Of a DNA stretch of 64,000 nucleotides, positions 242-55,603 are shown one piece after another (the first letter of the stretch is position 1; each line of letters begins with the position of its first letter). The notes under the pieces are model-generated. The model was given only the letters and a program-made list of their open reading frames with translations, was not told where the DNA came from and ran no database searches. This stretch comes from Candidatus Nitrospinota bacterium M3_3B_026. GTDB taxonomy: Bacteria; Nitrospinota_A; UBA7883; JBPRGF01. A program made the translations under genes and the position numbers. The DNA lies in assembly GCA_051418015.1 (NCBI GenBank), contig JBPRGF010000014.1, positions 58,101 through 122,100 on the forward strand, given 5' to 3'.

Positions 242-532
242 GTGGCCATCTCCATGGACGAGACGCGCCGCGTGGCCGAGCTCGCCCGCCTTGAGCTTTC
301 CGAAAAGGATGAGGAGCTTTTCGCGGAGCAGCTTTCCGCCGTGCTCGACTATATCGGCCAGCTCAACGAGCTGGACACGGAGGATGTGGAGCCGCTGTCG
401 AGCGCGCTGGACATCAGGAACGTGGTCCGGGAGGACCGGGCCGAAAAAAAGTTCGACCCCGGCGCGTGGAGCTCGAACGCCCCCGCCAGCGACCAGGGCC
501 ATTTCCGCGTGCCAAGGATAATAGAGGGCTGA
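242..532 (+). CDS. gatC: Asp-tRNA(Asn)/Glu-tRNA(Gln) amidotransferase subunit C (GatC), GTG start
   Basis: 96-aa ORF '[32 protein letters not shown]' matches the GatC N-terminal consensus. It lies directly upstream of gatA (stop 532, gatA ATG 541). Confidence 0.8.
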
Positions 533-540
533 CACACCCC

Positions 541-2001
541 ATGACGGACATCTTCCGCCTCACCCTGCGCGAGCTTGGGGAGAGGCTCGCCGCCGGAGCC
601 GTCACGAGCGAAGAGGCCGCGGGGGCGTATCTTGACAGGATCAGGCGCGTCGACCCGGAGCTGAACTCCTACATCACCGTTGACGAGGATAGCGCCATGG
701 AGGCCGCCCGGGAGGCCGACAAACGCCGGGCCGGAGGCGAAGAAGGGCCGCTGCTCGGCGTACCCATGGCGGTCAAGGACCTCATAAACACGAAGGGCCT
801 GCGGACAACCTGCGGCTCGAAGATGCTGGAGAGCTTTGTCCCCCCCTTCGACGCCCATGTCGTAAAAAAGCTGAAAGAAGCAGGGGCGGTGATCCTCGGC
901 AAGACGAACATGGACGAGTTCGCCATGGGGTCGTCGAACGAGACCAGCTTTTTCGGGCCGGTGAAAAACCCCTGGGACATCTCCAGGATCCCGGGCGGCT
1001 CCTCCGGCGGGTCCGCGGCGGCGGTGGCGGCGGATCTTTGCGCGGCGGCGCTGGGGTCGGACACGGGCGGATCCGTGCGCCAGCCGGCGTCGCTTTGCGG
1101 GATCGTGGGGCTGAAGCCGACCTACGGGCGTGTCTCCCGGTTCGGTCTCGTCGCCTTCGCGTCGTCGCTGGACCAGATCGGGCCGATGACGAAGGATGTC
1201 GCCGACTGCGCCCTCATGCTCGGCGCCATCGCCGGAGACGATCCGCTGGACTCCACCTGCTCCCCTGAGCCGGTTCCGGACTACACCGCCGATCTTGACA
1301 AAGGCGTGGAGGGGATGACTATCGGCGTTCCGGAAGAGTATTTCGTCGAGGGGATGGACGAGGATGTGGAGAAGACCGTCCGGGCCGCCCTGGAGGCCCT
1401 GAAAGAGGCCGGGGCGGCTGTGAAGCCTATATCACTCCCCCACACGAAGTACGGCGTTCCGGCCTATTACGTCATCGCTCCCGCCGAAGCGTCATCGAAC
1501 CTGGCCCGGTACGACGGAGTGAAATACGGATTCCGCGCCCAGGGGGCGAAGAGCCTGATGGAGATGTACAGCCGCACTCGCGAGGAAGGGTTCGGCGCGG
1601 AGGTGAAACGCCGGATCATGTTGGGGACCTACGCGCTCTCTTCGGGCTATTACGACGCGTACTACCTGAAGGCCCAGAAGGTCCGCGCGCTCGTCAGGAA
1701 GGACTTCGCCGAGGCTTTCGGCGATGTCTCGGCCATAGTGGCCCCCACGTCCCCCTCGGCGGCCTTCGGGATAGGCGAGAGGACCGGCGACCCGCTGAAG
1801 ATGTACCTTTCGGATATATTCACCATCAACGCCAACCTCGCCGGGATACCGGGCCTTTCCGTTCCCTGCGGCCATACGCCGGAAGGGCTGCCCGTGGGCT
1901 TGCAGATACTCGGCAAATGGTTCGACGAGGCGTCCCTGTTCCGCGTCGCCAGCGTTGTGGAAGAAAAGACCGGCGCGGGGGCAAAGAAACCGGCGCTTTA
2001 A
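541..2001 (+). CDS. gatA: Glutamyl-tRNA(Gln) amidotransferase subunit A (amidase family)
   Basis: Amidase signature including '[12 protein letters not shown]', a Ser-cis-Ser-Lys triad region and GatA-like termini. Start placed at ATG 541 (MTDIFRL) inside the longer ORF 466..2001. Confidence 0.93.
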
Positions 2002-3060
2002 TTAAGGCTCCCGCCCTTCCCCGGCCAGGTATATCGTCTGCGTGGGGTAGGCGAACTCGACGCCGAGTTTTTCGAACTCGTCCTTGATGGCGAGGTTTAT
2101 GTTCTGCTGGATGTCCATGTACTTGTTGTAGTCCGCGCCGATCACGTAGTAGACGATCTCGAACACGAGGGCGAAGTCGCCGTAAGAGAAAAAGTGCGCC
2201 CTGTCGAAGACGGTGTCCTCGAGCCCTTCGATGATCTGTCTTATGACCCCCGGTATCCTGGCAAGCTTCTCCGAGGGTGTCTGGTACGTGACGCCGATCC
2301 TGAAGGCGACCCTTCTTCGCTCCATCTTTTTATAGTTATGCACGCGGGAGTTGGCCAGGTCCGTGTTGGCGAAAATGATCTCCTCGCCGGAGAGGCTCTT
2401 TATCCTGGTGGCCTTGAGGCCGATGTACTCCACCACGCCCATCTTGTCGCCGATGATGACAAAATCGCCCTTGCGGAAAGGTTTGTCGAAGAGGATCACG
2501 AAATAGTTGAAAAGGTCGCCCAGGATCGCCTGCGACGCAAGCGCCAGGGCCACTCCGCCGATTCCCAGCCCGGCTATCAGCGTGGTGATGTCGAACCCGA
2601 GATTGTCCAGCAGGAAGATAACGGCGACCGCCCATATGGAGAGCTTCAGGAGCGTCGAGACGCCCTTGGGGATGACCTTGACCGTCCGGGCTCCTTCCTC
2701 GCTGAGCCCCTCGCCCTCGAAGACGTTGTCGACAAGCGCCACTGCCACCCTGGCGGCGAAGAAGCAGAGGATCACAAGGCCCGCCACGTCGATGAGCCTT
2801 TCCACCCTGGGGTTGAGGTACATGGAGCCCGCCGCCGCGTAAAAAACGGCGAAGTAGAGAACAGGCATGGCGCCTTTCTCCACGGCGCTTATCATGAAAC
2901 CGCGCAGGCGGGATTCCGCGCTCTCCAGGTAGGTTTTCACTTTGCTGTCGAACACGCCCTGGAGGGCCCTGATGGCCGCCGCGCCCGCGCCGAGAATCAC
3001 GAGGGCCAGCAGGTAGTCTTCCCAGCCGTTGTTTGTCAGCGTGTCGATGATGGCGTCCAT
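2002..3060 (-). CDS. Small-conductance mechanosensitive channel (MscS family)
   Basis: 352 aa with N-terminal TM helices and the MscS beta-domain motif 'LFDKPFRKGDFV..G..G.VE.IGL..T'. Convergent with gatA. Confidence 0.82.
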   Translation of the reverse strand: MDAIIDTLTNNGWEDYLLALVILGAGAAAIRALQGVFDSKVKTYLESAESRLRGFMISAVEKGAMPVLYFAVFYAAAGSMYLNPRVERLIDVAGLVILCFFAARVAVALVDNVFEGEGLSEEGARTVKVIPKGVSTLLKLSIWAVAVIFLLDNLGFDITTLIAGLGIGGVALALASQAILGDLFNYFVILFDKPFRKGDFVIIGDKMGVVEYIGLKATRIKSLSGEEIIFANTDLANSRVHNYKKMERRRVAFRIGVTYQTPSEKLARIPGVIRQIIEGLEDTVFDRAHFFSYGDFALVFEIVYYVIGADYNKYMDIQQNINLAIKDEFEKLGVEFAYPTQTIYLAGEGREP

Positions 3061-3156
3061 GTCCCGCCCTCCTATCCGGCAGTATCCAAGACTGGCCTAT
3101 TCTAAGTCCCGCCGCGGCGTCTGTTCAAGAACGTCCAGCGCTCCGGGGTGTTTTTC

Positions 3157-4182
3157 TCAGCTTATGACCACCTTTTTCAGCGTGTCCCACTCCTCCAGGG
3201 TCCTGCCCACGCCGCGGACGATGGAGGTGAGGGGGTCTTTCGCCCTGTAGACGGGAATGTTCAACTCCTTTTTCAACCTTGCGCCGAGGCCCTTGAGCAG
3301 CGCCCCGCCGCCCGCCAGGACCATCCCGCGGGTGGATATGTCATGGGCGAACTCCGGCGTCGTCCGCTCAAGCGCCTTGCGCGCCGCGTCCACGATGGCG
3401 TGGACGGGCTCCTCCATCGCCCTCCGGACGTCCTCGTCGGACAGGACGACGGACACTGGCAGTCCGCTGGCCACGTTGCGCCCGTAGACTTTCATCCGGA
3501 TTCTTTTTTTCAGCGGGGCCGCGGAGCCGATGGTCATTTTCACCCTCTCCGCCTCGTAGACGCCTATCTCCAGGTTGTGGCTCTTCCGGACGCTCCTGAC
3601 CAGCGCCTCGTCCATCTCGTCGCCCGCCACGCGGATCGACTCCGTGTAGGCCGTGGCGTACATGGAGATTATGGCCACCTCCGTCGTCCCGCCGCCGATG
3701 TCCACTATGAGGTTGCCCACGGACTCCCCCACCGGCATCCTCGTACCGATGGCCGCCGCCATAGGCTCCTCGACGAGGCTTACCTCCCTCGCCCCGGCGC
3801 CCATGGCGGAGTCTATCACCGCGCGTTTTTCCACCTGGGTGATCCCGGAGGGGACGCCTATCACGATCTTCGGCCTGCGGGGCGTCCAGCGGGGCCTGGC
3901 GGATTTTATGAAGTAGGCGATCATGCTTTTCGTGGAGTCGAAATCGGCTATCACGCCGTCCTTCATGGGGCGGATCGCCTCGAACCTGTCCGGGGTCTTG
4001 CCGTACATGGCCTTTGCCTCCGCCCCGATGGCCACGAGTTTTCCGGTTTCCTTGGAGAGCGTCACCACCGAGGGTTCGTCGATGACCACGCCGCGTCCCG
4101 GGACGTAGACCAGGGTGTTGGCGGTCCCCAGGTCGATGGCGAGGTCCGCCGAAAAAAGGTTGAACAAGCCTCGGAGCGCCAT
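3157..4182 (-). CDS. mreB: Rod shape-determining protein MreB (actin homolog)
   Basis: 'DLGTANTLVYV', 'VIGVPSGITQVE', 'IVDIGGGTTEVAII' and 'LAGGGALL' are canonical MreB/actin-fold phosphate and adenosine motifs. 341 aa. Confidence 0.95.
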   Translation of the reverse strand: MALRGLFNLFSADLAIDLGTANTLVYVPGRGVVIDEPSVVTLSKETGKLVAIGAEAKAMYGKTPDRFEAIRPMKDGVIADFDSTKSMIAYFIKSARPRWTPRRPKIVIGVPSGITQVEKRAVIDSAMGAGAREVSLVEEPMAAAIGTRMPVGESVGNLIVDIGGGTTEVAIISMYATAYTESIRVAGDEMDEALVRSVRKSHNLEIGVYEAERVKMTIGSAAPLKKRIRMKVYGRNVASGLPVSVVLSDEDVRRAMEEPVHAIVDAARKALERTTPEFAHDISTRGMVLAGGGALLKGLGARLKKELNIPVYRAKDPLTSIVRGVGRTLEEWDTLKKVVIS

Positions 4183-4188
4183 CCCGTG

Positions 4189-5652
4189 TTACCGGTCTCC
4201 CGGCGCGCCCAGGGCGCCGCCCCAGGACGCCTCCTGCTCGCTGTAGAACGACACCCTGGAGCCGGAGGCGCTCTTGGCCTTTTCGGAGGCGACCTGGGCT
4301 TTCGCTATGAGTTCCTCCACCCTGTTCCCGTCGGCCGGATACAGGGCCACTCCTATTGAGGGTGAGGCGTAGATATCTACCCCGTCCAGGTGGTACGGAA
4401 GCGACTCCACGGAGTCCACCACCGCCTGGGCCATCGCCATCGCCTGCCCGCCTTCGAGGCCGCGCAGCAGGAGGATGAACCTGTCGCCGTAGTAGCGGCA
4501 TACGATCCCCCTCTCCGCCACCACCTCGGAGAGCCTGCGGGCGGTTTCTATCGTCACGCGGTCGCCCGCGTCCATGCCCAGCTCGTGGTTGATCCGCGTG
4601 AAGCCTATCAGGTTGACGATCGCCACGGCGCCCTTCCCTTCGAGCGTCTGGTGGGTCTCCACCAGGTAGCGGCTCGTGGCGGCGCTGGTCAGCGGGTCGG
4701 TGAAAACGGCCCGCATGTTCCTGTTGTGCAGGTACAGGCTCGTGAACGCGGAGGCGAGCGTCGAGGCCAGGACGGAGAGTGACTTCACGCTCACGTGGCT
4801 GAAGGCGGCCTGTTTTCTCGACACAAGCCCGATGGCGCCGGAGACGTGGTCACCCATGGCCATCGGCGCCCCGATGAAGGACCTCCATTGCTCGTCCGCG
4901 CCGGGCGCGACCTTCGCCCCCTTGAGGTCCGGCACATATATGGTCCTGGCCTGCTGGATCACCCAGCCCAGCCTGTAAGGGGCGCCCGGCAGCTCGGTCC
5001 CGGGCGTTTGCCCGGCGCCGCTTCTCACCATGTAATATTTTCCGTCGTCGCTCATTCTCACGGCCATGACCATCTTGTCATGCGGAATGAGGGAAGGCAG
5101 GGCCAGCCTGAGCGCGTCCGTTATCTCGGAGAACCGCGAGCAGGCGGTTATCCTGCCCACCAGCCCGGACAGGGCGTCGAAAGCCGAGGCCCGGGCATCC
5201 AGGGATATCCTTTTCCTTCCCTCTGTCACGGCCCGGGAAATGACGCCCGCGAATTCCTCCAGTATCTTCAGCGCCTTGTCGGTGAAGACGTAGCTTTTCT
5301 TGCTGTCCACCGCCAAAACCCCCATGACCCTGCCCCCGCCGTCGAAAAGGGGGGCCGCCGCGAAAGACTTTATGTCCTCGTCCTTCGAATAATACTGGAG
5401 CGTGGTGGTGTCCCTGTCGAAGTTCGTGGCGTGGGCGCTCCGTTCGTTCTTGGCCGCCCATCCCACAAGCCCGCGCCCCAGGGGGATCCTGGCTCCGGTT
5501 ACGATGTTGCCGGAAAGCGACTGGCAGGCCCGCAGCGTCAACGTGTCCTCGGACCCTTCGTCCAGCAGGAACAGGGCGGCGGTGAAGGCGTCGGTGACAT
5601 TGCCGGCCAGCCGCACGAGTCTTTGGATATCGTTTTCAAGCGACTGGGGCAT
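4189..5652 (-). CDS. GAF-GAF-GGDEF domain protein with degenerate active site (YYGDRF instead of GG[DE]EF)
   Basis: 487 aa. Two GAF-like sensor regions (e.g. 'LGRGLVGWAAKNERS', 'YRLGWVIQQART'), then a diguanylate-cyclase fold ('NLIGFTRINHELGMDAGD', 'RYYGDRFILL'). The A-site motif (residues ~387-392, nt ~4477-4494) is degenerate and no RxxD I-site sits upstream. 6-nt gap to mreB. Confidence 0.8.
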   Translation of the reverse strand: MPQSLENDIQRLVRLAGNVTDAFTAALFLLDEGSEDTLTLRACQSLSGNIVTGARIPLGRGLVGWAAKNERSAHATNFDRDTTTLQYYSKDEDIKSFAAAPLFDGGGRVMGVLAVDSKKSYVFTDKALKILEEFAGVISRAVTEGRKRISLDARASAFDALSGLVGRITACSRFSEITDALRLALPSLIPHDKMVMAVRMSDDGKYYMVRSGAGQTPGTELPGAPYRLGWVIQQARTIYVPDLKGAKVAPGADEQWRSFIGAPMAMGDHVSGAIGLVSRKQAAFSHVSVKSLSVLASTLASAFTSLYLHNRNMRAVFTDPLTSAATSRYLVETHQTLEGKGAVAIVNLIGFTRINHELGMDAGDRVTIETARRLSEVVAERGIVCRYYGDRFILLLRGLEGGQAMAMAQAVVDSVESLPYHLDGVDIYASPSIGVALYPADGNRVEELIAKAQVASEKAKSASGSRVSFYSEQEASWGGALGAPGDR

Positions 5653-5833
5653 ATGATAGCGCAGGCAACTTTTTCCTGATGGTTGTTTCGCTCAAACTCA
5701 CAATTGAGGGTTAGTATAAACCCACTCCCTCCCGGAAAAAAGGGAAAGCTTGAATCCCGCGCGGCCCCCTCGGCCCCCGCGCGGCCCCCAGGGCCGTCTC
5801 CGGTTGACCATCGGCGCGCGTGGGAATAGAATT

Positions 5834-6508
5834 ATGGCATACCACGCCAGGCCTCTGGAGGATCGCGATATGCATGTGGGACAGGTGATGAGCCGGAAGG
5901 TCGTCACCGCATCGCCCGAGACGAAGGTCGAGAAGGCTTTCGGCGTCATAGTCAGCAAACGTATCGGGCATCTGCCGGTTCTCAGGAGGGGAAGGCTCGC
6001 CGGGATAGTCTCGGACCGCGATTTCCGCATGGCCATGAATCCCGCCAGATCACCCAAATCCGGCCGCGCCGGGGTCAAAAACCTCGCCGTGAAAGACATC
6101 ATGACAAAGGACGTCATCACCACCGAGCCGGGGATGGCCGTCTCCGACGCGGTGAAGCTTATGCTCCGGGCGAAGATCGGGGCGTTGCCCGTGATGACCG
6201 GCGACAGGCTCAGCGGGATAGTGACCAAGGACGACCTGCTCGGCGTTTTCGTGGAGATGCTGAGGTGGATACAGGCATCCTCCACCATAGACGTGGAGCT
6301 GGTGGACGAAATCGACGACCTGCAGGCGCTCTTTTCCACCCTGCGCGAGAGGAAGGCGCGCGTTCTGAGCTATTCCGCCACCCCCGGAGGGGCCAGCCGG
6401 GGACAGATATGCCACATCAGGATGACCCCCTGCGCCGTCAAGCCCATTGTCGGCGACCTCGCCAGGCGAGGGGTGACCGTGCTGGACGCCTATGGGGAGG
6501 ACACCTGA
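5834..6508 (+). CDS. CBS-pair domain protein with ACT-like C-terminus (AcuB-like)
   Basis: Two CBS motifs ('VMSRKVVTASPETKVEKAFGVIV..HLPVL..GRLAGIVSDRD', 'IMTKDVITTEP..AVKLM..GALPVM..LSGIVTKDDL'). ATG at 5834 chosen inside ORF 5750..6508; ATG 5870 is an alternative. Confidence 0.7.
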   Translation: MAYHARPLEDRDMHVGQVMSRKVVTASPETKVEKAFGVIVSKRIGHLPVLRRGRLAGIVSDRDFRMAMNPARSPKSGRAGVKNLAVKDIMTKDVITTEPGMAVSDAVKLMLRAKIGALPVMTGDRLSGIVTKDDLLGVFVEMLRWIQASSTIDVELVDEIDDLQALFSTLRERKARVLSYSATPGGASRGQICHIRMTPCAVKPIVGDLARRGVTVLDAYGEDT

Positions 6509-6567
6509 CATATTCCCGCCCCCGGCCTTATATTAGCTGTAGGAAGACAAAGCAGGGAGCCGGAACC

Positions 6568-7572
6568 ATGACCGTGGCGGAAGGGCTTCATCCCGCCCTT
6601 TACTGGGAAAAGGAGAAGGAGGGGAGGGTCCGTTGCGTCCTCTGTCCCTTCAGGTGTCTTCTGGGCGAAGGCAAGATCGGCATATGCCGGGGCAAACAGA
6701 ACATCGAGGGGAGCCTTTATGCCATAAACTACGCCAGGACCACCTCCATGAACATGGACCCCATAGAGAAAAAACCGCTGTATCATTTTTATCCTGGCTC
6801 CCACATTCTCTCCATAGGCCCGAACGGGTGCAACCTGGGGTGCGATTTTTGCCAGAACTGGGCCATCTCCCAGAAGGAGTTCCCCACGACCTATCTTCCG
6901 CCCGAGGACGCCGTCGGGCTGGCGGAGACCAGGGGCTCCATCGGCATAGCCTACACCTACACCGAGCCGCTGATATGGTTCGAGTACGTGCTGGACACCT
7001 CGAAGCTTGCGCGCGAGGCGGGGCTCGTGAACGTCCTGGTGACGAACGGGATGATAAACCCGGAGCCGATGGAGGAGCTTCTGCCTTACATAGACGCGAT
7101 GAACATCGACCTGAAGTCGATGGACCCGGCTTTCTACAGGAAAGTGAGCAAGGGCAAGCTCGAGCCCGTGCTGGACACCATCCGCCGATGCGCGGACAGA
7201 ACCCACGTGGAGATCACGAATCTTCTCATCCCCGGCCTCAACGACTCCACGGAGATGATAGAGAAACTGACGGATTTTATCGCCGGGCTGGATCCGCTGA
7301 TCCCTCTGCATTTTTCCCGCTATTTCCCCGGCTACAAGCGGACGACGCCGCCGACGCCGATGGAGTCGCTCCTGCGCGCCGCCCACATAGCCGAAAAGAG
7401 GCTCAAGTACGTCTTCATCGGCAACATCGCATCGGAAAAATACAACCAGACAAGGTGCCCCGAATGCGGGGAGACGATCATAGAGAGGGCCGGCTACACC
7501 GTCCTGAAGACCGCCGTCCGCGGGGGGGAATGCCAATACTGCGGGGCGAAGACGGCGATAGTCGCGGATTGA
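6568..7572 (+). CDS. amrS: AmmeMemoRadiSam-system radical SAM enzyme (PFL-activase-like) with C-terminal Zn-ribbon
   Basis: 'CVLCPFRC..GICRG' N-terminal Cys cluster, the radical SAM 'CNLGCDFCQNW' CxxxCxxC motif, and C-terminal 'CPECG..CQYCG'. ATG 6568 chosen inside the longer ORF. Confidence 0.78.
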   Translation: MTVAEGLHPALYWEKEKEGRVRCVLCPFRCLLGEGKIGICRGKQNIEGSLYAINYARTTSMNMDPIEKKPLYHFYPGSHILSIGPNGCNLGCDFCQNWAISQKEFPTTYLPPEDAVGLAETRGSIGIAYTYTEPLIWFEYVLDTSKLAREAGLVNVLVTNGMINPEPMEELLPYIDAMNIDLKSMDPAFYRKVSKGKLEPVLDTIRRCADRTHVEITNLLIPGLNDSTEMIEKLTDFIAGLDPLIPLHFSRYFPGYKRTTPPTPMESLLRAAHIAEKRLKYVFIGNIASEKYNQTRCPECGETIIERAGYTVLKTAVRGGECQYCGAKTAIVAD

Positions 7573-7658: not shown

Positions 7659-7773
7659 TTACGCCGATTCACGCTCAATAGGAGACGGGTTCCGGCGCTT
7701 GTCGCGGCGGGGCTCTTGGCGTGGGTCGAAAAAGCCTTAAGTTATCTGTTGTTTGAGTAAGGAGGAGCATCGT

Positions 7774-8988
7774 ATGAGGAGGACATTCCTATCGGTTCTG
7801 TCGGTCGTGGCGGTCGCCATGGCGGGAATCCTCGTAACGCCGGATGAAGGCTCGGCCCTGCCGAACTTCGCCCGGCAGACCGGGCAGCCCTGTTTCAGCT
7901 GCCATTTCCAGCACATTCCAAAACTTTCCGCGTACGGGCGGTCCTTCAAGATGGGCGCGTACACGGACACCTTCGTCGACATGATCGAGGGTGAGAACCT
8001 GTCCACCCCGGCCACGGCCCCCGTCGGGTTCGTGACCAAGCTGCGCTACGTCCAGACCACCGCCAAGGAAGAGCACGGCGAGAAGGCCGGCACCGAGCGC
8101 GGCGAGTGGCAGATTCCTGACGAGGCCGCTCTCTGGCTGGCCGGGCGCGTGTCCGAGAACATCGGCTACGCCATCGAGTTCCCGGAAGGCTGGGCCTCGG
8201 GCAAGGTCATCTTCAAGCTTCCGGTGGACGCCGTGAACGTGGGCCTTTCCGTGTACAGCACGGACGCTCTCGGGCCGGGCTTCGGCATGGAGATCTTCAA
8301 CACCGGCGTTCTGCGGTCCATCCGCATGTTTGAGTCCCGCAAGGAGACGATAGTCGCCCAGGGGATGGGTGTCGGAGCCGGGACGGCCACGGGTCTTACC
8401 CTCTACGCCGGCAGCGACATGTTCTTCGCGGGCGCCGGCCTGTGGGGCCCGCAGTTCGGCGGAGAGGCTCCCATCGACACGGGTTTCGACCTTTCCACCT
8501 GGTACCGCGCGGCCTTCACGCCGACCTTCGGCGATCATAACCTGATGATCGGCGTCTTCGGCACCGCGGGCGAGACCAAGTGCGTCGAGTGTCTCGGTGG
8601 CGACGGTAGCGAGGTGCTGTCCGCCAAGACGGAGTCCTTCGGTGTTGACGCTCAGCTTCAGAGCGTGTTGGGCAACGGCATGACCCTGGAGGTTCAGGGC
8701 ATGTACCTGACCGCTGGCAGCGACGACGCCAACTCCCTCTACACGGAGTCCAACGGCTTCAGCGGCGTCGCGGAGCTTGGCTTCAACCCGATGTTCGGCG
8801 TGGCCGTCGGTTACGCAAGCTACACCGACAAGAGCGGGTCCGAGGACGTGGACACCCAGGCCACGAGCGTCGCGGCTTACGCCAACCTCGCCCAGAACGT
8901 CACGCTGAGGCCGGAGTTCACCTCCTACAGCGGCGACGGAAGGAGCAACGACGACCAGTTCCTGCTTCTCCTGCTGGCTGGCTTCTAA
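7774..8988 (+). CDS. Outer-membrane monoheme cytochrome c fused to a beta-barrel (Cyc2-like candidate)
   Basis: AGGAGG-like RBS (taaggagg, 7758-7765) before ATG 7774. Signal peptide 'MRRTFLSVLSVVAVAMAG'. A single CxxCH ('QPCFSCHF') lies ~20 residues into the mature protein. The remaining ~370 aa are Gly/aromatic-rich alternating beta-strand-like sequence ending in a C-terminal Phe ('LLAGF'), the typical OMP terminus. Confidence 0.5.
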   Translation: MRRTFLSVLSVVAVAMAGILVTPDEGSALPNFARQTGQPCFSCHFQHIPKLSAYGRSFKMGAYTDTFVDMIEGENLSTPATAPVGFVTKLRYVQTTAKEEHGEKAGTERGEWQIPDEAALWLAGRVSENIGYAIEFPEGWASGKVIFKLPVDAVNVGLSVYSTDALGPGFGMEIFNTGVLRSIRMFESRKETIVAQGMGVGAGTATGLTLYAGSDMFFAGAGLWGPQFGGEAPIDTGFDLSTWYRAAFTPTFGDHNLMIGVFGTAGETKCVECLGGDGSEVLSAKTESFGVDAQLQSVLGNGMTLEVQGMYLTAGSDDANSLYTESNGFSGVAELGFNPMFGVAVGYASYTDKSGSEDVDTQATSVAAYANLAQNVTLRPEFTSYSGDGRSNDDQFLLLLLAGF

Positions 8989-9304: not shown

Positions 9305-11266
9305 TCAGGCCCTCGCGGCGCCGGACTCTTTCCAATCTACCAAAAAGATGTCGTAGCGGACGCCCTCCAGCCCCTTGATCTCGGCCCAGCCTATTTCCCG
9401 GAGAACGAACCTGGGGTCGTCCTTGATGGAGTTGTAGACAATGTATGAGACCAGCACGCGGTTCACCAGCGGGAAATCCACAGGGTCCACGTTCAGTTGC
9501 ATGAATGACTCCGGGCCGAGCCTCTCGATCCTCGAAGCGGCGTTCACCGGCACGCCGAACCGGTCGTTGTCATGCCCCACCCTGGTCTCTCCGAAGTCGA
9601 TCCCCACCCGGACGTTTATCCTGTTTTTCTCGTCCGCCCTCCGGTTGTAATCTTCCAGCTCCTTCAGTGTCTCCACGGCCGCGCTGACGGCGTCGGCGTT
9701 GCTCTCGAAAACGCCCATGAACCCGTCGCCCAAGCCCTTTTTGTACGCGAGGCCGTTGCGCGAGGCCTTTTCGCTGAAAATCTTGTCCAGCGAACTGAAC
9801 AGCTTGAAGAAATGGTATCCCCCGTAGACGTTCATTATCTCCGTGGAGCCTGCCACGTCCAGGAACAGGATCGACTCCGGCCGGGAGTCTTTATACGGCG
9901 AGGCGGGGATGGATGGCGCCTGGAGCGGCTTTGACGGGATCGAGGGTGGAGCGTCCCCGGCGGAGCTTGCGGCGGACACTTTTTCTATGAACTCGGCCAC
10001 TCTTTCGGCGCTCCCCCTGAGGGATTCGTCGGCGAGCTTGATGAAGGTCTCGTAGTCCTTGACGGCTTCCCCGGACAATCCCATGTCATACTTCGCCTTG
10101 CCCCTGTTGTGATAGGCCGGGGCGAAGCTGGGGTTGAGCCGTATGGCCTCGCTGTAGTCGGCGACGGCTTCCTTCTTGAGGCCTAAGTCGGACCTGGCGT
10201 TGCCGCGGTTGTTGTAGGCGGCGGCGTAGCTCGGGTCCAGTTGCGTGGCGGCGTCGTAGTCGGCTATGGCCTCTTCCTTCAATCCCATGTATGAGAGGGC
10301 GTTCCCCTTGTTGTAAAAGACCTGCGGCATGTTCGGCTTCAGCCTCAGGGCCTCCTCGTAGTCGGCGACGGCTTCCTTTTTGAGACCCAGGTCGGACTTG
10401 GCGTTGCCCCGGTTGTAATAGGCCGCGGCAAGATCCGGGTCCAGCTCTATGGCGCGGTCGTAGTCGGCTATGGCCTCTTCCTTGCGCCCCAGGGCGGATT
10501 TTATGTTTCCCCTGTTGTTGTACGCCAGGGCGTAATCCGGACCCAGCTCTATGGCGCGGTCGAAATCGGCTATGGCCTCCTCGGCCCTGCCGAGGTCGTA
10601 TTTAGCGTTCGCCCTGTTGAAAAAGGCCACGGCGTAACGGGGACTGAGTTCTATGGCCTGGTCGTAGTCGGCTATTGCCTCGTCTTTTCGCCCCAGCGAG
10701 TCCTTGGCGATGCCGCGGTTGTTGTACGCCTTGGCGAGGCCGGGGTCCAGGCGGATGGCCTGGTCGTAGTCGGCTATGGCCTCCTCCTTGCGCCCCAGGG
10801 CGGCCTTGGCGCTGCCGCGGTTGTTGTAGGCGGCGGCGTGGGAGGGGTTCAGGCGTACGGCCTGGTCGTAGTCGGCTATGGCCTCCTCCTTGCGCCCCAG
10901 GGCGGACTTGGCGTTGCCACGGTTGTTGTAGGCCACGGCGTAGTTCGGGTTCAGCGCGAGCGCCTGGTCGTAGTCGGCTATGGCCTCCTCCTTGCGCCCT
11001 AGGGCGGACTTGGCGTTGCCCCGGTTGTTGTAGGCGGCGGCGTAATCGGGGTTCAGCTCTATGGCGCGGTCGAAATCGGCGATGGCCTCCTCCCTGTGGC
11101 CCAGGGCGGCCTTGGCGCTGCCGCGGTTGTTGTAGGCGGCGGCGTGGGAGGGGTTCAGGCGTATCGCCTCGTCGAAATCGGCGATCGACTCCCCGGTCTG
11201 CTTGTTTTTATATTTTTCGACGCCTTTTTCGAAATATTGTTTCGCTTTTTCCGTCTCGTTTGACAT
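9305..11266 (-). CDS. TPR-repeat protein (about 12 x 34-aa repeats) with C-terminal class III adenylyl/guanylyl cyclase domain
   Basis: Repeated 'AIADYDQAIELNPDYAAAYNNRGNAKSALGRKEE' units. The C-terminal domain carries 'FLDVAGSTEI', 'GDGFMGVF', 'VRVGIDFGE' and 'GVPVNAASRIE' (cyclase homology domain). 653 aa. Confidence 0.88.
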   Translation of the reverse strand: MSNETEKAKQYFEKGVEKYKNKQTGESIADFDEAIRLNPSHAAAYNNRGSAKAALGHREEAIADFDRAIELNPDYAAAYNNRGNAKSALGRKEEAIADYDQALALNPNYAVAYNNRGNAKSALGRKEEAIADYDQAVRLNPSHAAAYNNRGSAKAALGRKEEAIADYDQAIRLDPGLAKAYNNRGIAKDSLGRKDEAIADYDQAIELSPRYAVAFFNRANAKYDLGRAEEAIADFDRAIELGPDYALAYNNRGNIKSALGRKEEAIADYDRAIELDPDLAAAYYNRGNAKSDLGLKKEAVADYEEALRLKPNMPQVFYNKGNALSYMGLKEEAIADYDAATQLDPSYAAAYNNRGNARSDLGLKKEAVADYSEAIRLNPSFAPAYHNRGKAKYDMGLSGEAVKDYETFIKLADESLRGSAERVAEFIEKVSAASSAGDAPPSIPSKPLQAPSIPASPYKDSRPESILFLDVAGSTEIMNVYGGYHFFKLFSSLDKIFSEKASRNGLAYKKGLGDGFMGVFESNADAVSAAVETLKELEDYNRRADEKNRINVRVGIDFGETRVGHDNDRFGVPVNAASRIERLGPESFMQLNVDPVDFPLVNRVLVSYIVYNSIKDDPRFVLREIGWAEIKGLEGVRYDIFLVDWKESGAARA

Positions 11267-12791: not shown

Positions 12792-13550
12792 ATGCCGGAA
12801 CGTGAGCCCGCCCAGATCCTGAGCCTGTCGGTGATGGGGCGCGGGGGGGAGGAGAAAGCGTTCCCGCTGGATCGTGACAGCCTGACCATCGGCAGGGAGT
12901 CCGGCTGCGACATCATCATCCCTGACCTTTCCATATCCAAAAAACACGCGAGGGTTTTCATCGAGAACGGCAGGACGATGATCGCCGACGGCGTGGACGG
13001 CAAGCCAAGCGTCAACGGTGTTTACGTGAACGACGCTCGCATAAGCGGCCCCGTGGCGCTCAAGGAAGGCGACGTGGTGAAGATGGGCGTGCTGAAATTC
13101 ATGGCGAAGCTGAGCCCGGACCTTAAGCGCCAGGCGACGCTGGAGCAGGTGACCTCCGCGGAGAACCTGAGGGCGTTCCTGGAGTACGGCGAGGCCATGA
13201 AGGCCAGGGAGGCTGACATCCTGGCGCGGATATCCTCCCTTGACCTGGGGGCCGGAGAGCTGACGGAGATTTTCGACGCCGCGCTGGACAGGGCGATGGA
13301 GGAAAGCCGCCTCAAAAAGGTCGGGTTCATCTCCGCCCTGAAACACAAAGCGCTGAAAGAGACGAAAAGCGGCGGAGGCCGGAAGGCCGGACAGTGGAGC
13401 GAAGACGCCGCCGGGGACCCGGACGCCACCGTTCTAGACCCCGCCTTCGCCGCGTCCGCCGGGGCCGGGAAGCGGAGAGGGCTTCTGATCGTCGCGGCGG
13501 CGCTCCTGGGGGCTTTCATTGCCGCCGCCCTTGTTCTGATGTATTTATGA
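12792..13550 (+). CDS. FHA-domain protein with C-terminal membrane anchor
   Basis: N-terminal FHA ('LTIGRESGCDIIIPDLSISKKHARVFIENGRTMIADGVDGKPSVNGVYVND..LKEGDVVKMG'), central acidic region, C-terminal TM helix 'LLIVAAALLGAFIAAALVLMYL'. Confidence 0.78.
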   Translation: MPEREPAQILSLSVMGRGGEEKAFPLDRDSLTIGRESGCDIIIPDLSISKKHARVFIENGRTMIADGVDGKPSVNGVYVNDARISGPVALKEGDVVKMGVLKFMAKLSPDLKRQATLEQVTSAENLRAFLEYGEAMKAREADILARISSLDLGAGELTEIFDAALDRAMEESRLKKVGFISALKHKALKETKSGGGRKAGQWSEDAAGDPDATVLDPAFAASAGAGKRRGLLIVAAALLGAFIAAALVLMYL

Positions 13551-13564
13551 GAAAATAGGAAACC

Positions 13565-14590
13565 ATGGCGGAAAACAGGCTGGACAGGATTTTCGAGGAC
13601 GAAAGCTACCGGGCCCTCAAGGGGGAGGAGAAGAGGGTGTACGGCTTCCTCTCCACCGTGGTGGAGAAAAAGAAGATGCTCCTGGAGCTGGAGAAAAGCT
13701 ACCGCGCGAGGCTCAAGGAGATAGCCGACGAGGTGGCGGGCCGCGAGGGGGCCCTGAACCTTTCGGCCCAGGAGGCGGACGCCGCCGCCGATGGCCTGAA
13801 AAAGACCTTGAAAGCCGCGGATGAGAAGATAAAATCCATCCGCCGTGAGCTGGACTTCGCGGAGCTGCGCCTCTCGGCGGGGGAGTTTGGACGGGAGGAG
13901 CTGGACAGAGAAAGAGACAGGCTTCAGCGGGAGCTCTCGAAGGCGGAGGCGGAAAGATCGTGGATCCAGGACAAGATCGCCCTTGTCAAAAAACTGAAGT
14001 CCGGCTCCAGGAGGACGAAACCGCGAGAGGAACAGAAAGAGCGCAAGACCGACGGGGCGAACGCATCCTCCCCCCGCCGCCCCGCGGAGGCGGAGAAAGA
14101 CAATACGCAAACCACCACCTCCCCCATCATGAGCCTGAAAGGCTTTGGCGGCGCCAGGAGCCCCGACGCGACGATCATCTCCGAGATGACGCTGCCGATC
14201 AAACCCACGGGGGGGAATTTCGACGCCGAAGAAACCATGGCCATCCCGGCGGACCTCGTGGGATCGGATCCGGACAGGCTCCTGGAGGCGTCCCTGCACA
14301 TTCATAACGAGGATGGATGGGAGCGTTTCCCCCTGAAAAAGGAGGATGTGAGCATAGGCAACATCCGCGAGCCGGAAAACGACATCGCCCTTTACGACGC
14401 CCAGGTGTCGAGAAGACACGCGAAGATAATCTACGACGAGCCGACCGACTGCTGGTTTCTCGTGGACCTCGGCAGCCGCAACGGCTCCTTCCTGAACAAC
14501 AAGTTCATAGAGTCGAACGACCCGCAACTTCTGAAAGACAAGGACAGGATAACCCTGGGCGAGACCAGCATAGTCATACACCTGCCCTGA
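13565..14590 (+). CDS. Coiled-coil protein with C-terminal FHA domain
   Basis: N-terminal ~150 aa of E/K/R-rich coiled coil, then C-terminal FHA ('VSIGNIREPENDIALYDAQVSRRHAKIIYD..WFLVDLGSRNGSFLNNKFI..LKDKDRITLGE'). 14-nt gap from the preceding FHA gene. Confidence 0.78.
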   Translation: MAENRLDRIFEDESYRALKGEEKRVYGFLSTVVEKKKMLLELEKSYRARLKEIADEVAGREGALNLSAQEADAAADGLKKTLKAADEKIKSIRRELDFAELRLSAGEFGREELDRERDRLQRELSKAEAERSWIQDKIALVKKLKSGSRRTKPREEQKERKTDGANASSPRRPAEAEKDNTQTTTSPIMSLKGFGGARSPDATIISEMTLPIKPTGGNFDAEETMAIPADLVGSDPDRLLEASLHIHNEDGWERFPLKKEDVSIGNIREPENDIALYDAQVSRRHAKIIYDEPTDCWFLVDLGSRNGSFLNNKFIESNDPQLLKDKDRITLGETSIVIHLP

Positions 14591-14682: not shown

Positions 14683-15603
14683 ATGGCTAAGGACTACTAC
14701 GACATACTCGGCGTGGACAGGAACGCCACGGTGGAGCAGATCAAGAAGGCGTACAAAAATCTCGCCAAGAGATACCACCCGGACAGGAACCCGGACGACA
14801 AGCAGGCCGAGGAGAAGTTCAAGGAGATAAGCGAGGCCTACGCCGTCCTGAGCGACAAGGAAAAACGCGCCCAGTACGACAGGTTCGGCCACGCCAAGTT
14901 CCGCCAGGCCTACAGCCAGGAGGACATCTTCAGCGGTGTGAACCCGGACGACATATTCCGCGAGTTCGGATTCGGGGGCGATATCCTCAGCCAGATGTTC
15001 GGCTTCAGGACCGCGGGCGGGCCGCGTGTGCGCTTTGAGCAGGGAGGCTTCGGGTTCGAGCCTTTCGGCGCGGGACGGGGGCCGATGGCGGGGCGGGACT
15101 ACGAGACGAGCCTCACCGTCTCCTTCGATGAGGCGATGAAAGGCGCCGAGCGGGCGCTGACCCTGAACACGGAGTCGGGCCCGCGCCACGTGACGGTGAG
15201 GATACCCCGGGGGATATCGACGGGCAAGAAACTCCGCCTGAAGGGGGAGGGCGGGCCCGGCCCCGGCGGCGGGCCTCCGGGCGATCTTTACATAAAAGCG
15301 ACGGTGGCTGAAGACCCGGTGTTCAAAAGAGACGGGGACGACCTGGTCGTGGAGGCGCCGGTCGCCTATTCCACCCTCATCCTTGGCGGGACGGCCTCCG
15401 TCCCCACGTTGGAGGGGGAAAAGACCATAAGGATACCTCCGGCGTCTGACCCGTCGAAAAGGATCAGGATAAAGGGAGCCGGGGCGCCGAAACTGAAAGG
15501 AGGCCGGGGCGACCTTTACGTCAAGCTGAAGGTGACCGTGCCGCCGGAGCCCACCGAAAAGCAGAAGAGCCTGGCCTCGGAGCTTTTGAAGACGGGGCTT
15601 TGA
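14683..15603 (+). CDS. cbpA: DnaJ-class J-protein lacking the zinc-finger (CbpA-like)
   Basis: J-domain '[30 protein letters not shown]', Gly/Phe-rich linker, DnaJ C-terminal substrate-binding domains. No CxxCxGxG repeats. Confidence 0.8.
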
Positions 15604-15758: not shown

Positions 15759-17246
15759 TTGATGAAACAAGACCGAAGAATAGAGCTTTTAAAGGACATC
15801 GCCGGCCTCATCGGCTCCGTGGCCGACCTGGACAACCTGCTCGCGCTGCTGGTCATCACCGCCACGCGCGTCCTGGAGGTCCGCGCCTCGTCGTTGTTGC
15901 TGCTGGACAAGAAGACCGGCCGCCTTTACTTCCACACCGCCCTCGGCGACAAGAAAGAGAACGTGAAGGAGTTCGAGCTGAAAAAGGGCGAGGGGATAGC
16001 CGGGTGGGTCTTCGAGCGCGGCGAGCCTCTGCTTGTCGAGAACGTGAAGGAAGACCCCCGCTGGGCCTCCGAGATCGCGGAGAAAGTGGGCTTCAACACG
16101 GGGTCCATAGCCTGCGCGCCCCTGAAGGTGGAAGGGGAGGTGATAGGCGTCCTGGAGGTCATAGACAGAGAGGACGGCGCTCCCCTGCGGCCGGAGGACC
16201 TGAAACAGCTGCAGGCATTCTCCGATCTGGCCGCCGCGACGCTCCTGAGCGCCAGGGCGTACAAGAACGTCCAGAGGGAGGTCAGCGAGCTGCGCCGGGA
16301 GCTCGGCTCGAGACGGCGCATAATCGGAAACTCCCCCTCCGTCAGGAAGGCCCTGGAGGACTGTTCCAAGGTGGCCGACTCCAAGGCCACGACGCTCATC
16401 ACCGGGGAGTCCGGCACGGGCAAGGAGCTTTTCGCCCGGCTCATCCACGATCTGTCGCCGCGGAGCGGCGGCCCCATGACGGTTGTCAACTGCGGCGCGC
16501 TGCCGGAGACCCTGCTGGAGCGGGAGCTTTTCGGCCACGAGAAGGGCGCCTTCACGGGGGCCGATTCCATGAAGCCCGGCCTTTTCGAGTCCGCCGACAC
16601 GGGTACCATATTCCTCGATGAGATAGCGGAGACGTCCCCCGCCATGCAGGTCAAGCTGCTGCGGGTCCTGCAGGAGGGAGCGTTTTACAGGGTCGGCGGC
16701 TCCTCGCCGATCCGCGTGGACGTCAGGGTCATCGCGGCCACGAACAAAGACCTTGAGAAGATGGTGAAGGAGAAGACGTTCCGCGAGGATCTTTTTTACA
16801 GGCTCAACGTCTTCAGGCTGCGCCTGCCGCCGCTGCGGGACAGGAGGGACGACATCCCCGCCCTCGCGGAAAAGTTCCTGGCCCGGACGGCGCGGGATAT
16901 GAGCCGCCCTGTCAGGGGTTTTTCGGACGAGGCGATGAACGCCCTCATGAGATACTCCTGGCCCGGCAACATCCGCCAACTGGAGAACGCCGTGGAGCGC
17001 GCCGTGATAATGTCCGAGTCGGAGTTGATCGAGCTCGACGACCTGCCTGGGGAGGTGCGGGAGACCGGCGGCGGGGACATTCACGTGGGCATGAGCCTGA
17101 AAGACGCCCAGGACGGCTTCAAGAGGGCGTTTATAGCGCAATCGCTGGCGTTCCTCGGCGGCAACAAGACGAAAACGGCTAAGATGCTGGGCATACAGCG
17201 CACCTACCTGAGCAGGCTCATAAGGGAGCTTGGCATAAACTCTTAA
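15759..17246 (+). CDS. Sigma-54-dependent transcriptional activator with N-terminal GAF sensor (Fis-type HTH)
   Basis: GAF region, then AAA+ 'ITGESGTGKELFAR', the GAFTGA loop ('EKGAFTGA'), 'RVDVRVIAATN', and C-terminal Fis-like HTH 'KTAKMLGIQRTYLSRLIRE'. Confidence 0.9.
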   Translation: MMKQDRRIELLKDIAGLIGSVADLDNLLALLVITATRVLEVRASSLLLLDKKTGRLYFHTALGDKKENVKEFELKKGEGIAGWVFERGEPLLVENVKEDPRWASEIAEKVGFNTGSIACAPLKVEGEVIGVLEVIDREDGAPLRPEDLKQLQAFSDLAAATLLSARAYKNVQREVSELRRELGSRRRIIGNSPSVRKALEDCSKVADSKATTLITGESGTGKELFARLIHDLSPRSGGPMTVVNCGALPETLLERELFGHEKGAFTGADSMKPGLFESADTGTIFLDEIAETSPAMQVKLLRVLQEGAFYRVGGSSPIRVDVRVIAATNKDLEKMVKEKTFREDLFYRLNVFRLRLPPLRDRRDDIPALAEKFLARTARDMSRPVRGFSDEAMNALMRYSWPGNIRQLENAVERAVIMSESELIELDDLPGEVRETGGGDIHVGMSLKDAQDGFKRAFIAQSLAFLGGNKTKTAKMLGIQRTYLSRLIRELGINS

Positions 17247-55420: not shown

Positions 55421-55497
55421 CGGGGCGTAGCGCAGCCTGGTAGCGCATCTGCTTTGGGAGCAGAGGGCCGGAGGTTCAAATCCTCTCGCCCCGACCA
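55421..55497 (+). tRNA. tRNA-Pro (anticodon TGG)
   Basis: Cloverleaf with 7-bp acceptor CGGGGCG/CGCCCCG, anticodon stem TCTGC/GCAGA, loop TTTGGGA (anticodon TGG, G37), T-loop GGTTCAAAT, encoded CCA. Confidence 0.9.

Positions 55498-55527: not shown

Positions 55528-55603
<76 letters not shown>

Follow-up and report, generated by a model that had tools for sequence, protein, structure and literature searches.

The stretch of DNA analyzed here, referred to as the window, comprises 64,000 nucleotides (nt) from Candidatus Nitrospinota bacterium M3_3B_026 (contig JBPRGF010000014.1 of assembly GCA_051418015.1, positions 58,101 to 122,100). Close to one end it carries two adjacent genes on the minus strand, one encoding a protein with two GAF domains followed by a degenerate GGDEF domain (4189..5652) and the other, directly downstream, a member of the MreB actin family that we call mreB2 (3157..4182). 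A first-pass annotation, made from the letters alone, had singled out the GAF gene as a catalytically dead cyclase co-transcribed with an actin-like gene. Its open reading frame (ORF) extends from an ATG at 5652 to a TAA at 4189-4191, and the 487-residue translation is 100% identical to an NCBI entry titled 'GAF domain-containing protein' from the Nitrospinota metagenome-assembled genome (MAG) M3_3B_026. The minus-strand gene can be divided into GAF1 (residues 1-150, 5203..5652), which is N-terminal, family-defining and the best-kept part; a connecting helix with GAF2 (residues 151-310, 4723..5202), located by the second Pfam GAF stretch, an AlphaFold2 model and Foldseek; and the degenerate GGDEF-fold domain (residues 311-470, 4243..4722), located by PF00990, sequence matches in the PDB and Foldseek. 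Pfam matched two stretches with GAF (PF01590) and GAF_2 (PF13185, E-value 1.5e-26), and residues 335-463 with GGDEF (PF00990, E-value 1.4e-20, 74.2 bits against a cut-off of 23.8), while TIGR00254 scored 64.5 bits (cut-off 37.4). The AlphaFold2 model, for which the input was an alignment of 42 orthologs, reached a mean predicted local distance difference test (pLDDT) score of 86.5, with about 90 across the GGDEF domain, and placed along the chain a GAF fold (24-117), a long helix (125-169), a second GAF fold (193-278), another long helix (286-317) and the GGDEF fold (341-469). In Foldseek comparisons the GGDEF part superposed on the T. maritima GGDEF domain 4urg (chain B) with a template-modelling (TM) score of 0.84 and a root-mean-square deviation of 1.5 Å over 153 columns. 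The whole model was nearest to the phytochrome-cyclase IsPadC (5llw, 6et7; E-value ~1e-19), and the tandem-GAF proteins 1ykd, 3lfv and 3ibj were among the top structural matches. Sequence matches to the GGDEF domain in the PDB were 5m3c and TM1788 (4urq/4urs), and for GAF1 the nearest was the GAF domain of PtsP (3ci6, E-value 1.2e-4), which is a weak hint. Because Pfam, the model and the superposition agree, the tandem GAF sensors and the intact GGDEF fold of the first-pass annotation are both upheld.

Residue equivalences within the GGDEF domain were obtained by aligning the window protein to the solved cyclases TM1788 (4urs/4urq) and 5m3c. They are given alongside PleD numbers, in which we take D327 to be the first Mg ligand, N335 and D344 the guanine-binding pair and R366 the motif arginine. 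The A-site heptad R386-Y-Y-G-D-R-F392 (4477..4497, minus strand) replaces R-x-G-G-[DE]-E-F and aligns with RYGGDEF of TM1788; the first glycine is Y388 and the second acidic residue (PleD E371) is R391. The first metal-binding aspartate (PleD D327) is N347 (4612..4614, minus strand), with VNL aligned to VDL of 4urs, and D390 is the sole acidic residue left of the metal-binding set (PleD D327, E370/E371). The guanine-binding pair is kept as N355 and D364, and the motif arginine as R386. Five residues before the A-site, the slot of the inhibitory RxxD motif (I-site) reads A379-E-R-G382 (4507..4518, minus strand) and is aligned to RRSD of 4urs. The unusual A-site noted at first reading was recovered both directly from the sequence and from the alignment, which also bears out the loss of Mg ligands, with N347 for D327 and R391 for E371. 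The statement that ERGI replaces RxxD was right in that no RxxD is present, but its register was off by one, the equivalent residues in the alignment to 4urs being A379-E-R-G382. With the A-site, the metal positions and RxxD all altered, the domain is predicted to be catalytically dead and to lack an I-site, and the protein is very unlikely to make cyclic di-GMP (c-di-GMP), in keeping with the first-pass annotation.

The TAA of the GAF gene and the ATG of mreB2 are separated by the 6-nt spacer CACGGG (4183..4188, minus strand), the distance and orientation originally reported. A simple scan of the junction found no terminator-like or promoter-like site, and from a 6-nt gap without a terminator we infer that the two genes are co-transcribed. 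The downstream gene encodes a 341-residue protein of the MreB/Mbl family (PF06723, E-value 4e-125, 417 bits) that scores 450 bits against the NCBIfam MreB subfamily NF010539 (cut-off 293), with the ATP motifs DLGTANT, EEPMAAAIG, DIGGGTTE and GGG intact.

With the ortholog alignment as the query, a scan of the GTDB representatives (a single genome for each species) retrieved 80 loci, most of which have an mreB 50-74% identical to the window copy directly downstream and on the same strand. Family members were defined by a GAF1 profile score of at least 125 bits together with an mreB paralog directly downstream, and a locus was considered informative when at least 1.1 kb of sequence was available downstream. 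Among 65 loci scoring at least 125 bits, 60 were informative and 59 of these had mreB directly downstream on the same strand; among 15 loci scoring lower, 11 were informative and none had it, these counts being tied to a criterion derived from the same loci and to a profile whose first sequence is the window protein. At the lower-scoring loci the genes are for GAF proteins of other kinds, among them GAF-GAF-SpoIIE phosphatases, a multi-GAF kinase and a PucR-type regulator. The sole exception among the 60 is L012, from a Nitrospinota bin (567-4124), where a convergent PAS histidine-kinase gene lies downstream. In the L012 subclade, with the A-site RYSADMF or RYSADTF, mreB2 may have been relocated or lost. 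When the look-up was reversed and started from MreB, both contigs examined, which were picked without prior knowledge of their upstream gene, had a family member just upstream (E-value ~1e-49). Carriers are labelled Nitrospinota, Syntrophobacterales, Desulfarculales, Desulfobacteraceae, Thermodesulfobacteriota, Bdellovibrionota, Oligoflexia and Schekmanbacteria, and all are metagenome bins. The flanking genes differ by locus, with hisB and motA in L081, pdxJ and ETF-QO in L084, peptidase U32 and DivIVA/YggT in L083, and RNase E/G in L085 and L086. Overall, the association with the actin-like gene holds up, found as it is in 59/60 informative loci of several phyla with differing flanking genes, and the pairing is near-obligate, though given L012 not obligatory.

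The distance between the two genes is less constant than their order. Gaps in related loci range from -20 to +360 nt, about half of them being 26 nt or shorter, with an outlier of ~1000 nt in L065, and the frame varies as well. In the window, the two ORFs (3160-5652, minus strand) share one frame with TAA and two codons between them; a stop-codon read-through fusion was considered as a conserved feature and rejected, since gap and frame vary among orthologs. In the Bdellovibrionota-type loci L085 (4685-6298) and L086 (5201-6922), the RNase E/G gene lies just upstream of the pair, and further upstream are FHA-domain genes, a response regulator and a YscJ/FliF gene. An old neighborhood of mreB and RNase G is possible, as rng ends the mre cluster in E. 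coli.

We then asked what kind of MreB is encoded next to the GAF gene. The ATP-binding motifs are conserved in 56/56 GAF-linked MreB2 sequences and a hydrophobic or amphipathic N-terminus is retained, which makes MreB2 likely to be a working, membrane-bound filament former. In neighbor-joining trees these 56 sequences split from canonical MreBs (Nitrospinota MreB1, Caulobacter, Geobacillus and, added later, E. coli) in 99/100 and 97/100 bootstraps. Identity is 58-60% among the canonical MreBs and 49-52% between the window MreB2 and each of them. The Nitrospinota contig of L084 carries both kinds, in the order mreB-mreC-mreD, pdxJ, the gene for the GAF-GAF-degenerate GGDEF protein and a second mreB; the window MreB2 shares 65% identity with the GAF-linked copy and 52% with the mreCD-linked copy. 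Using Nitrospinota MreC and MreD as queries, we found no match anywhere in the window and none beside any GAF-linked mreB outside L084. Judging from the tree and the identities, the GAF-linked mreB is a distinct paralog clade and not the canonical mreBCD gene of the rod complex. For this reason, namely that the partner belongs to a separate clade without mreC/mreD, the role in cell shape put forward at first reading is not established. A link to MreB1/MreB2 of B. bacteriovorus was also considered and dropped; the search with Bdellovibrionota MreB2 matched uncultured (MAG) sequences only.

A protein search returned ~42 full-length orthologs of the GAF protein (476-513 residues, 30-59% identity), all from Nitrospinota-type bins. 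Neither GG[DE]EF nor an RxxD I-site was found in any of the 42, and GG[DE]EF was likewise missing from all of ~50 diverse, more distant cluster representatives. R386 is invariant (42/42), D390 is present in 39/42 and the N355 and D364 pair in 40/42. At the first glycine of the A-site the orthologs have Y (30), C (3), S (3), F (2), H (2) or W (2), and at its last acidic position R (21) or K (14), together 35/42, and never E; the position of N347 is N in 24, D in 17 and K in 1. The arginine position of the I-site is occupied by G (28), K (7), A (3), P (2), N (1) or E (1) and the aspartate position by G (34), A (5), S (2) or D (1). Mean pairwise identity among the 42 orthologs is 55% in GAF1, 44% in GAF2 and 37% in the degenerate GGDEF domain, and G64, W65, Y88, P101, D116, S117, K118 and F123 of GAF1 are invariant. 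The degeneracy is common to the orthologs, all 42 Nitrospinota sequences being non-canonical. Since no ortholog carries an intact GG[DE]EF, the alignment indicates an ancient, constrained state and not recent neutral decay.

Beyond Nitrospinota, the family varies most in the domain that first drew attention to it. The N-terminal GAF domain, with the motifs NVTDAFTAALFL, G-GLVGW-AK, Y--DEDIKSF-A-P and VDSK--Y-FT-K, is always retained, and the GGDEF domain is near-canonical, scrambled or absent depending on the lineage. Long forms of the partner (~465-540 residues) have the order GAF-GAF-GGDEF-like, and short forms (~300-340 residues) are GAF-GAF. Bdellovibrionota forms (~320 residues) have a GAF domain and an unassigned C-terminal module that is in register with GGDEF by eye but without a significant hhalign match (E-value 0.054, probability 1%); it was considered as an extremely degenerate GGDEF domain, which we do not claim. 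Schekmanbacteria members (L015, P0283) have the A-site RFAGEEF together with an RDED I-site and DxD, scattered distant members have RYGSDEF, RYGGDNF or RYRGEEF, Nitrospinota have RYYGDRF and its variants, Syntrophobacterales have GCLDQARF, and in the short forms the GGDEF-like domain is absent altogether. A search with GAF1 alone against 1.84 billion cluster representatives gave 851 clusters at an E-value of 1e-10 or better. Among the top 150 matches, 97 distinct clusters at 50% identity belonged to the family, which sets its size at no less than that; the family clusters in this set included 45 long forms, 27 short forms and 17 with N-terminal extensions. No family name was found, the annotations being generic ('GAF domain-containing protein', 'diguanylate cyclase', 'signal transduction protein with GAF and PtsI domain'). 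The dead cyclase, on which the initial interpretation centered, is not the conserved core, given a GGDEF domain that ranges from near-canonical to absent and an N-terminal GAF domain that is always kept. The conserved element of the partner is the N-terminal GAF domain, and the family as a whole can do without the cyclase module.

The surroundings of the pair in the window were also inspected. The intergenic region at 5653..5749, which in the ORF map separates the GAF gene from a divergent CBS-domain gene identified by Pfam (5750-6508, plus strand), is presumed to hold the promoter of the two-gene unit; a simple scan found no sigma-70-like minus-strand site in it. The next gene downstream of mreB2 (2002-3060, minus strand) encodes an MscS-type channel and has a promoter-like site of its own ahead of it. 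Adjoining the CBS gene is a radical SAM protein with a C-terminal zinc-ribbon-like match (6265-7572, plus strand), whose true start is probably internal, near MTVAEGL, followed by a 411-residue ORF (7753-8988, plus strand) with a signal-peptide-like N-terminus and no Pfam match that may be an outer-membrane or periplasmic protein. A gene at a distance of ~4 kb from the GAF gene (9305-11266, minus strand) encodes a 653-residue protein that combines at least 10 TPR repeats with a class III adenylate/guanylate cyclase domain at its C-terminus; it could supply a cyclic nucleotide to GAF domains, in a neighborhood that is not conserved in related loci. Two adjacent FHA-domain proteins (12792-13550 and 13565-14590, plus strand) recall the FHA genes near the pair in L085 and L086, and are followed by a DnaJ/CbpA-like protein (14683-15603, plus strand) and a GAF-containing sigma-54 activator (15759-17246, plus strand). 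On the other side, gatC and gatA (242-2001, plus strand) are convergent to the MscS, mreB2 and GAF genes. In Pseudomonas too, gatCAB adjoins mreB; the arrangement in the window is probably chance because it is absent in L081 and L084. Rfam gave no match to a riboswitch or other RNA element near the locus, its only matches in the window being two tRNA genes (55421-55494, plus strand, and 55531-55603, minus strand) that lie 36 nt apart. PADLOC defence models gave zero matches for the GAF protein or MreB2, and a foreign origin of the locus was rejected, its GC content resembling the rest of the window.

Several characterized systems share individual features with the GAF protein. Like it, E. coli CsrD (YhdA) has a non-catalytic GGDEF domain, and its gene immediately precedes mreB on the same strand, 304 nt lying between them in the K-12 cluster csrD-mreB-mreC-mreD-yhdE-rng (NC_000913.3, 3400044-3403332). 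CsrD functions not as an enzyme but as a protein or RNA-decay specificity factor (PMC6123446). Unlike the window protein, CsrD has transmembrane segments, a degenerate EAL domain and no GAF domain, and it precedes a canonical mreBCD-yhdE-rng cluster; Pfam found no EAL domain in the window protein. Specific homology was rejected, as none of the 61 GGDEF proteins compared with the family profile of the degenerate GGDEF domain scored lower than CsrD (26.7 bits); the window protein in turn scored 26 bits against the CsrD model (cut-off 663, E-value 2.5e-6). No functional link between csrD and mreB was found in the literature, and we regard the parallel in position, striking as it is, as an analogy that may be due to chance.

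The closest characterized architecture is that of DmxA from Myxococcus xanthus, in which two GAF domains, connecting helices and a GGDEF domain follow each other as in the window protein. DmxA dimerizes via its GAF region, is coupled to a cytoskeletal machine and is brought to the site of division (PMC11255338). It differs in that a six-helix membrane domain recruits it, it has an active A-site as well as an I-site and its function needs c-di-GMP synthesis; nor is its gene located beside mreB. The bacterial proteins PopA, SgmT, PelD and Bdellovibrio CdgA are c-di-GMP receptors with degenerate GGDEF domains, in which an inactive A-site serves non-enzymatic functions, often in localization. Most of them bind c-di-GMP via an intact RxxD, which is absent in the window protein and its 42 orthologs. 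IsPadC (5llw, 6et7), PDE2/5/6 and CyaB2 (1ykd, 3lfv, 3ibj) resemble the model in their succession of sensors, long helices and output domain and in their parallel-dimer architecture, but they are enzymatically active, their ligands are known (bilin, cGMP, cAMP) and the sequence identity is 11-18%. On the side of the filament, Mbl and MreBH of B. subtilis are MreB paralogs, and RodZ, MbiA, AimB, YodL/YisK and CbtA are MreB modulators. To our knowledge, no MreB modulator is a GAF or GGDEF protein or a conserved operon partner across phyla. Mbl/MreBH and Bdellovibrio MreB1/MreB2 resemble MreB2 in being systems with a second, presumably specialized MreB. In Bdellovibrio bacteriovorus, both MreBs are essential and their partners are not known (PMC6985089). 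The literature that we searched on MreB with GAF or degenerate GGDEF proteins, MreB paralogs, Nitrospina and Bdellovibrio does not describe the pairing.

Because a conserved tandem-GAF protein with a dead cyclase is paired near-obligately with mreB2, and the cyclase is dispensable, the data point to a dedicated sensory partner. On balance we lean toward a GAF protein that senses a signal and, without acting as an enzyme, serves the MreB2 filament as a partner or regulator. The GAF gene would be the first of a two-gene unit and the divergent mreB2 the second. Its product is a soluble protein with the order GAF-helix-GAF-helix-GGDEF and, by analogy with tandem-GAF enzymes, probably a dimer; the long helices, as in DmxA and the tandem GAFs of PDEs, suggest a parallel one. 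A small ligand would be bound by one or both GAF domains of this dedicated partner, and the ligand-bound protein would adjust the assembly, placement or partner recruitment of MreB2. The GGDEF module may be a relic of an ancestral active cyclase that, in Nitrospinota, would be kept as a structural and possibly guanine-nucleotide-binding module. We infer the physical interaction with MreB2, the sensing of a ligand and the direction of regulation. A bolder version of this proposal, possible but decidedly more tentative, holds that the two proteins form an ancient, widespread and signal-gated second actin cytoskeleton, in which GAF1 would bind MreB2 directly and, responding to a metabolite or nucleotide, switch its polymerization or its placement at the membrane; the partner would have originated as a filament-tethered c-di-GMP synthase that repeatedly lost its enzymatic output but kept its structural tie to the filament.

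Some observations weigh against a regulatory partnership. The support consists of gene adjacency, which speaks for functional coupling and not for direct binding, and L012, with a histidine kinase gene in place of mreB, shows that the pairing is not obligatory. Both mreB copies are visible in one genome only (L084), and the canonical outgroup of the MreB tree consists of 4 sequences. The Shine-Dalgarno sequence of mreB2 is not clean, with GGGAG ~14 nt from the ATG, and translational coupling is only plausible.

Instead of or besides the GAF domains, it might be the dead A-site of the Nitrospinota proteins that gates the effect on MreB2, by binding GTP, (p)ppGpp or c-di-GMP without turnover. 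A degenerate GGDEF domain that binds GTP allosterically is found in C. crescentus PdeA, and structures of PleD with (p)ppGpp exist in the PDB (9g85, 9g86). The conservation of the guanine pair N355 and D364 (40/42 orthologs), the invariance of R386, the near-invariance of D390 (39/42) and a GGDEF fold intact in the model would all suit such a receptor, even though both metal ligands are changed (N347, R391). As the guanine positions are lost in Syntrophobacterales-type members and the domain is absent in the short forms, nucleotide binding is not a family-wide mechanism, and we consider a nucleotide receptor to be a minority possibility, confined to Nitrospinota.

The GAF protein could alternatively act on other targets and merely share a promoter with mreB2, neither protein acting on the other. 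Synteny is the sole link between the two genes, their adjacency is lost in one lineage (L012) and E. coli csrD also adjoins mreB on its upstream side with no functional link known. Against this stands a pairing that persists, amid changing surroundings, in 59/60 loci from Nitrospinota, Desulfobacterota-type, Bdellovibrionota, Oligoflexia and Schekmanbacteria bins. Moreover, with a dispensable output domain and a strongly conserved GAF1 there is no obvious alternative output, and mere co-regulation of neighbors appears unlikely.

That the variant A-site still makes c-di-GMP or another nucleotide product is highly improbable. The GGDEF fold, the guanine-binding N/D pair and the acidic D390 are retained, and a few distant members with near-canonical motifs (RFAGEEF with an I-site, RYGGDNF) may be active. 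In the window protein, however, three catalytic positions are altered together (the first glycine to Y, E371 to R with reversal of charge, and D327 to N), no ortholog restores the three, and the position of E371 is R or K in 35/42. Finally, the idea that an ordinary cyclase gene has undergone recent neutral decay, or is a pseudogene, has nothing in its favor beyond the altered motif itself and was ruled out with next to no probability left, as the ORF is full-length with a conserved MPQ N-terminus, the degenerate motif is present in every ortholog, at identities of only 30-59%, and R386, N355, D364 and D390 are under constraint.

Degenerate GGDEF/GAF signaling proteins and MreB paralogs are both known already as kinds. 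The notable object is the conserved two-gene module of a GAF protein and an MreB paralog, of which the dead cyclase is the Nitrospinota version, and our analysis points to this module being an undescribed, signal-controlled cytoskeletal one. If the genes turned out to be only co-expressed neighbors, the GAF protein would be one more degenerate GGDEF protein. If direct switching of MreB2 by GAF1 is true, MreB regulators would gain a new class, and a path leading from an enzyme to a cytoskeletal adaptor would be documented. The series from a near-intact cyclase with an I-site through dead to domainless forms offers material on how an enzyme is converted to a non-enzymatic protein. The control of MreB by environmental or metabolic signals is poorly understood and the roles of second MreB copies are open; a sensor whose gene is linked to that of a single MreB paralog in several phyla provides a concrete, testable handle on both.

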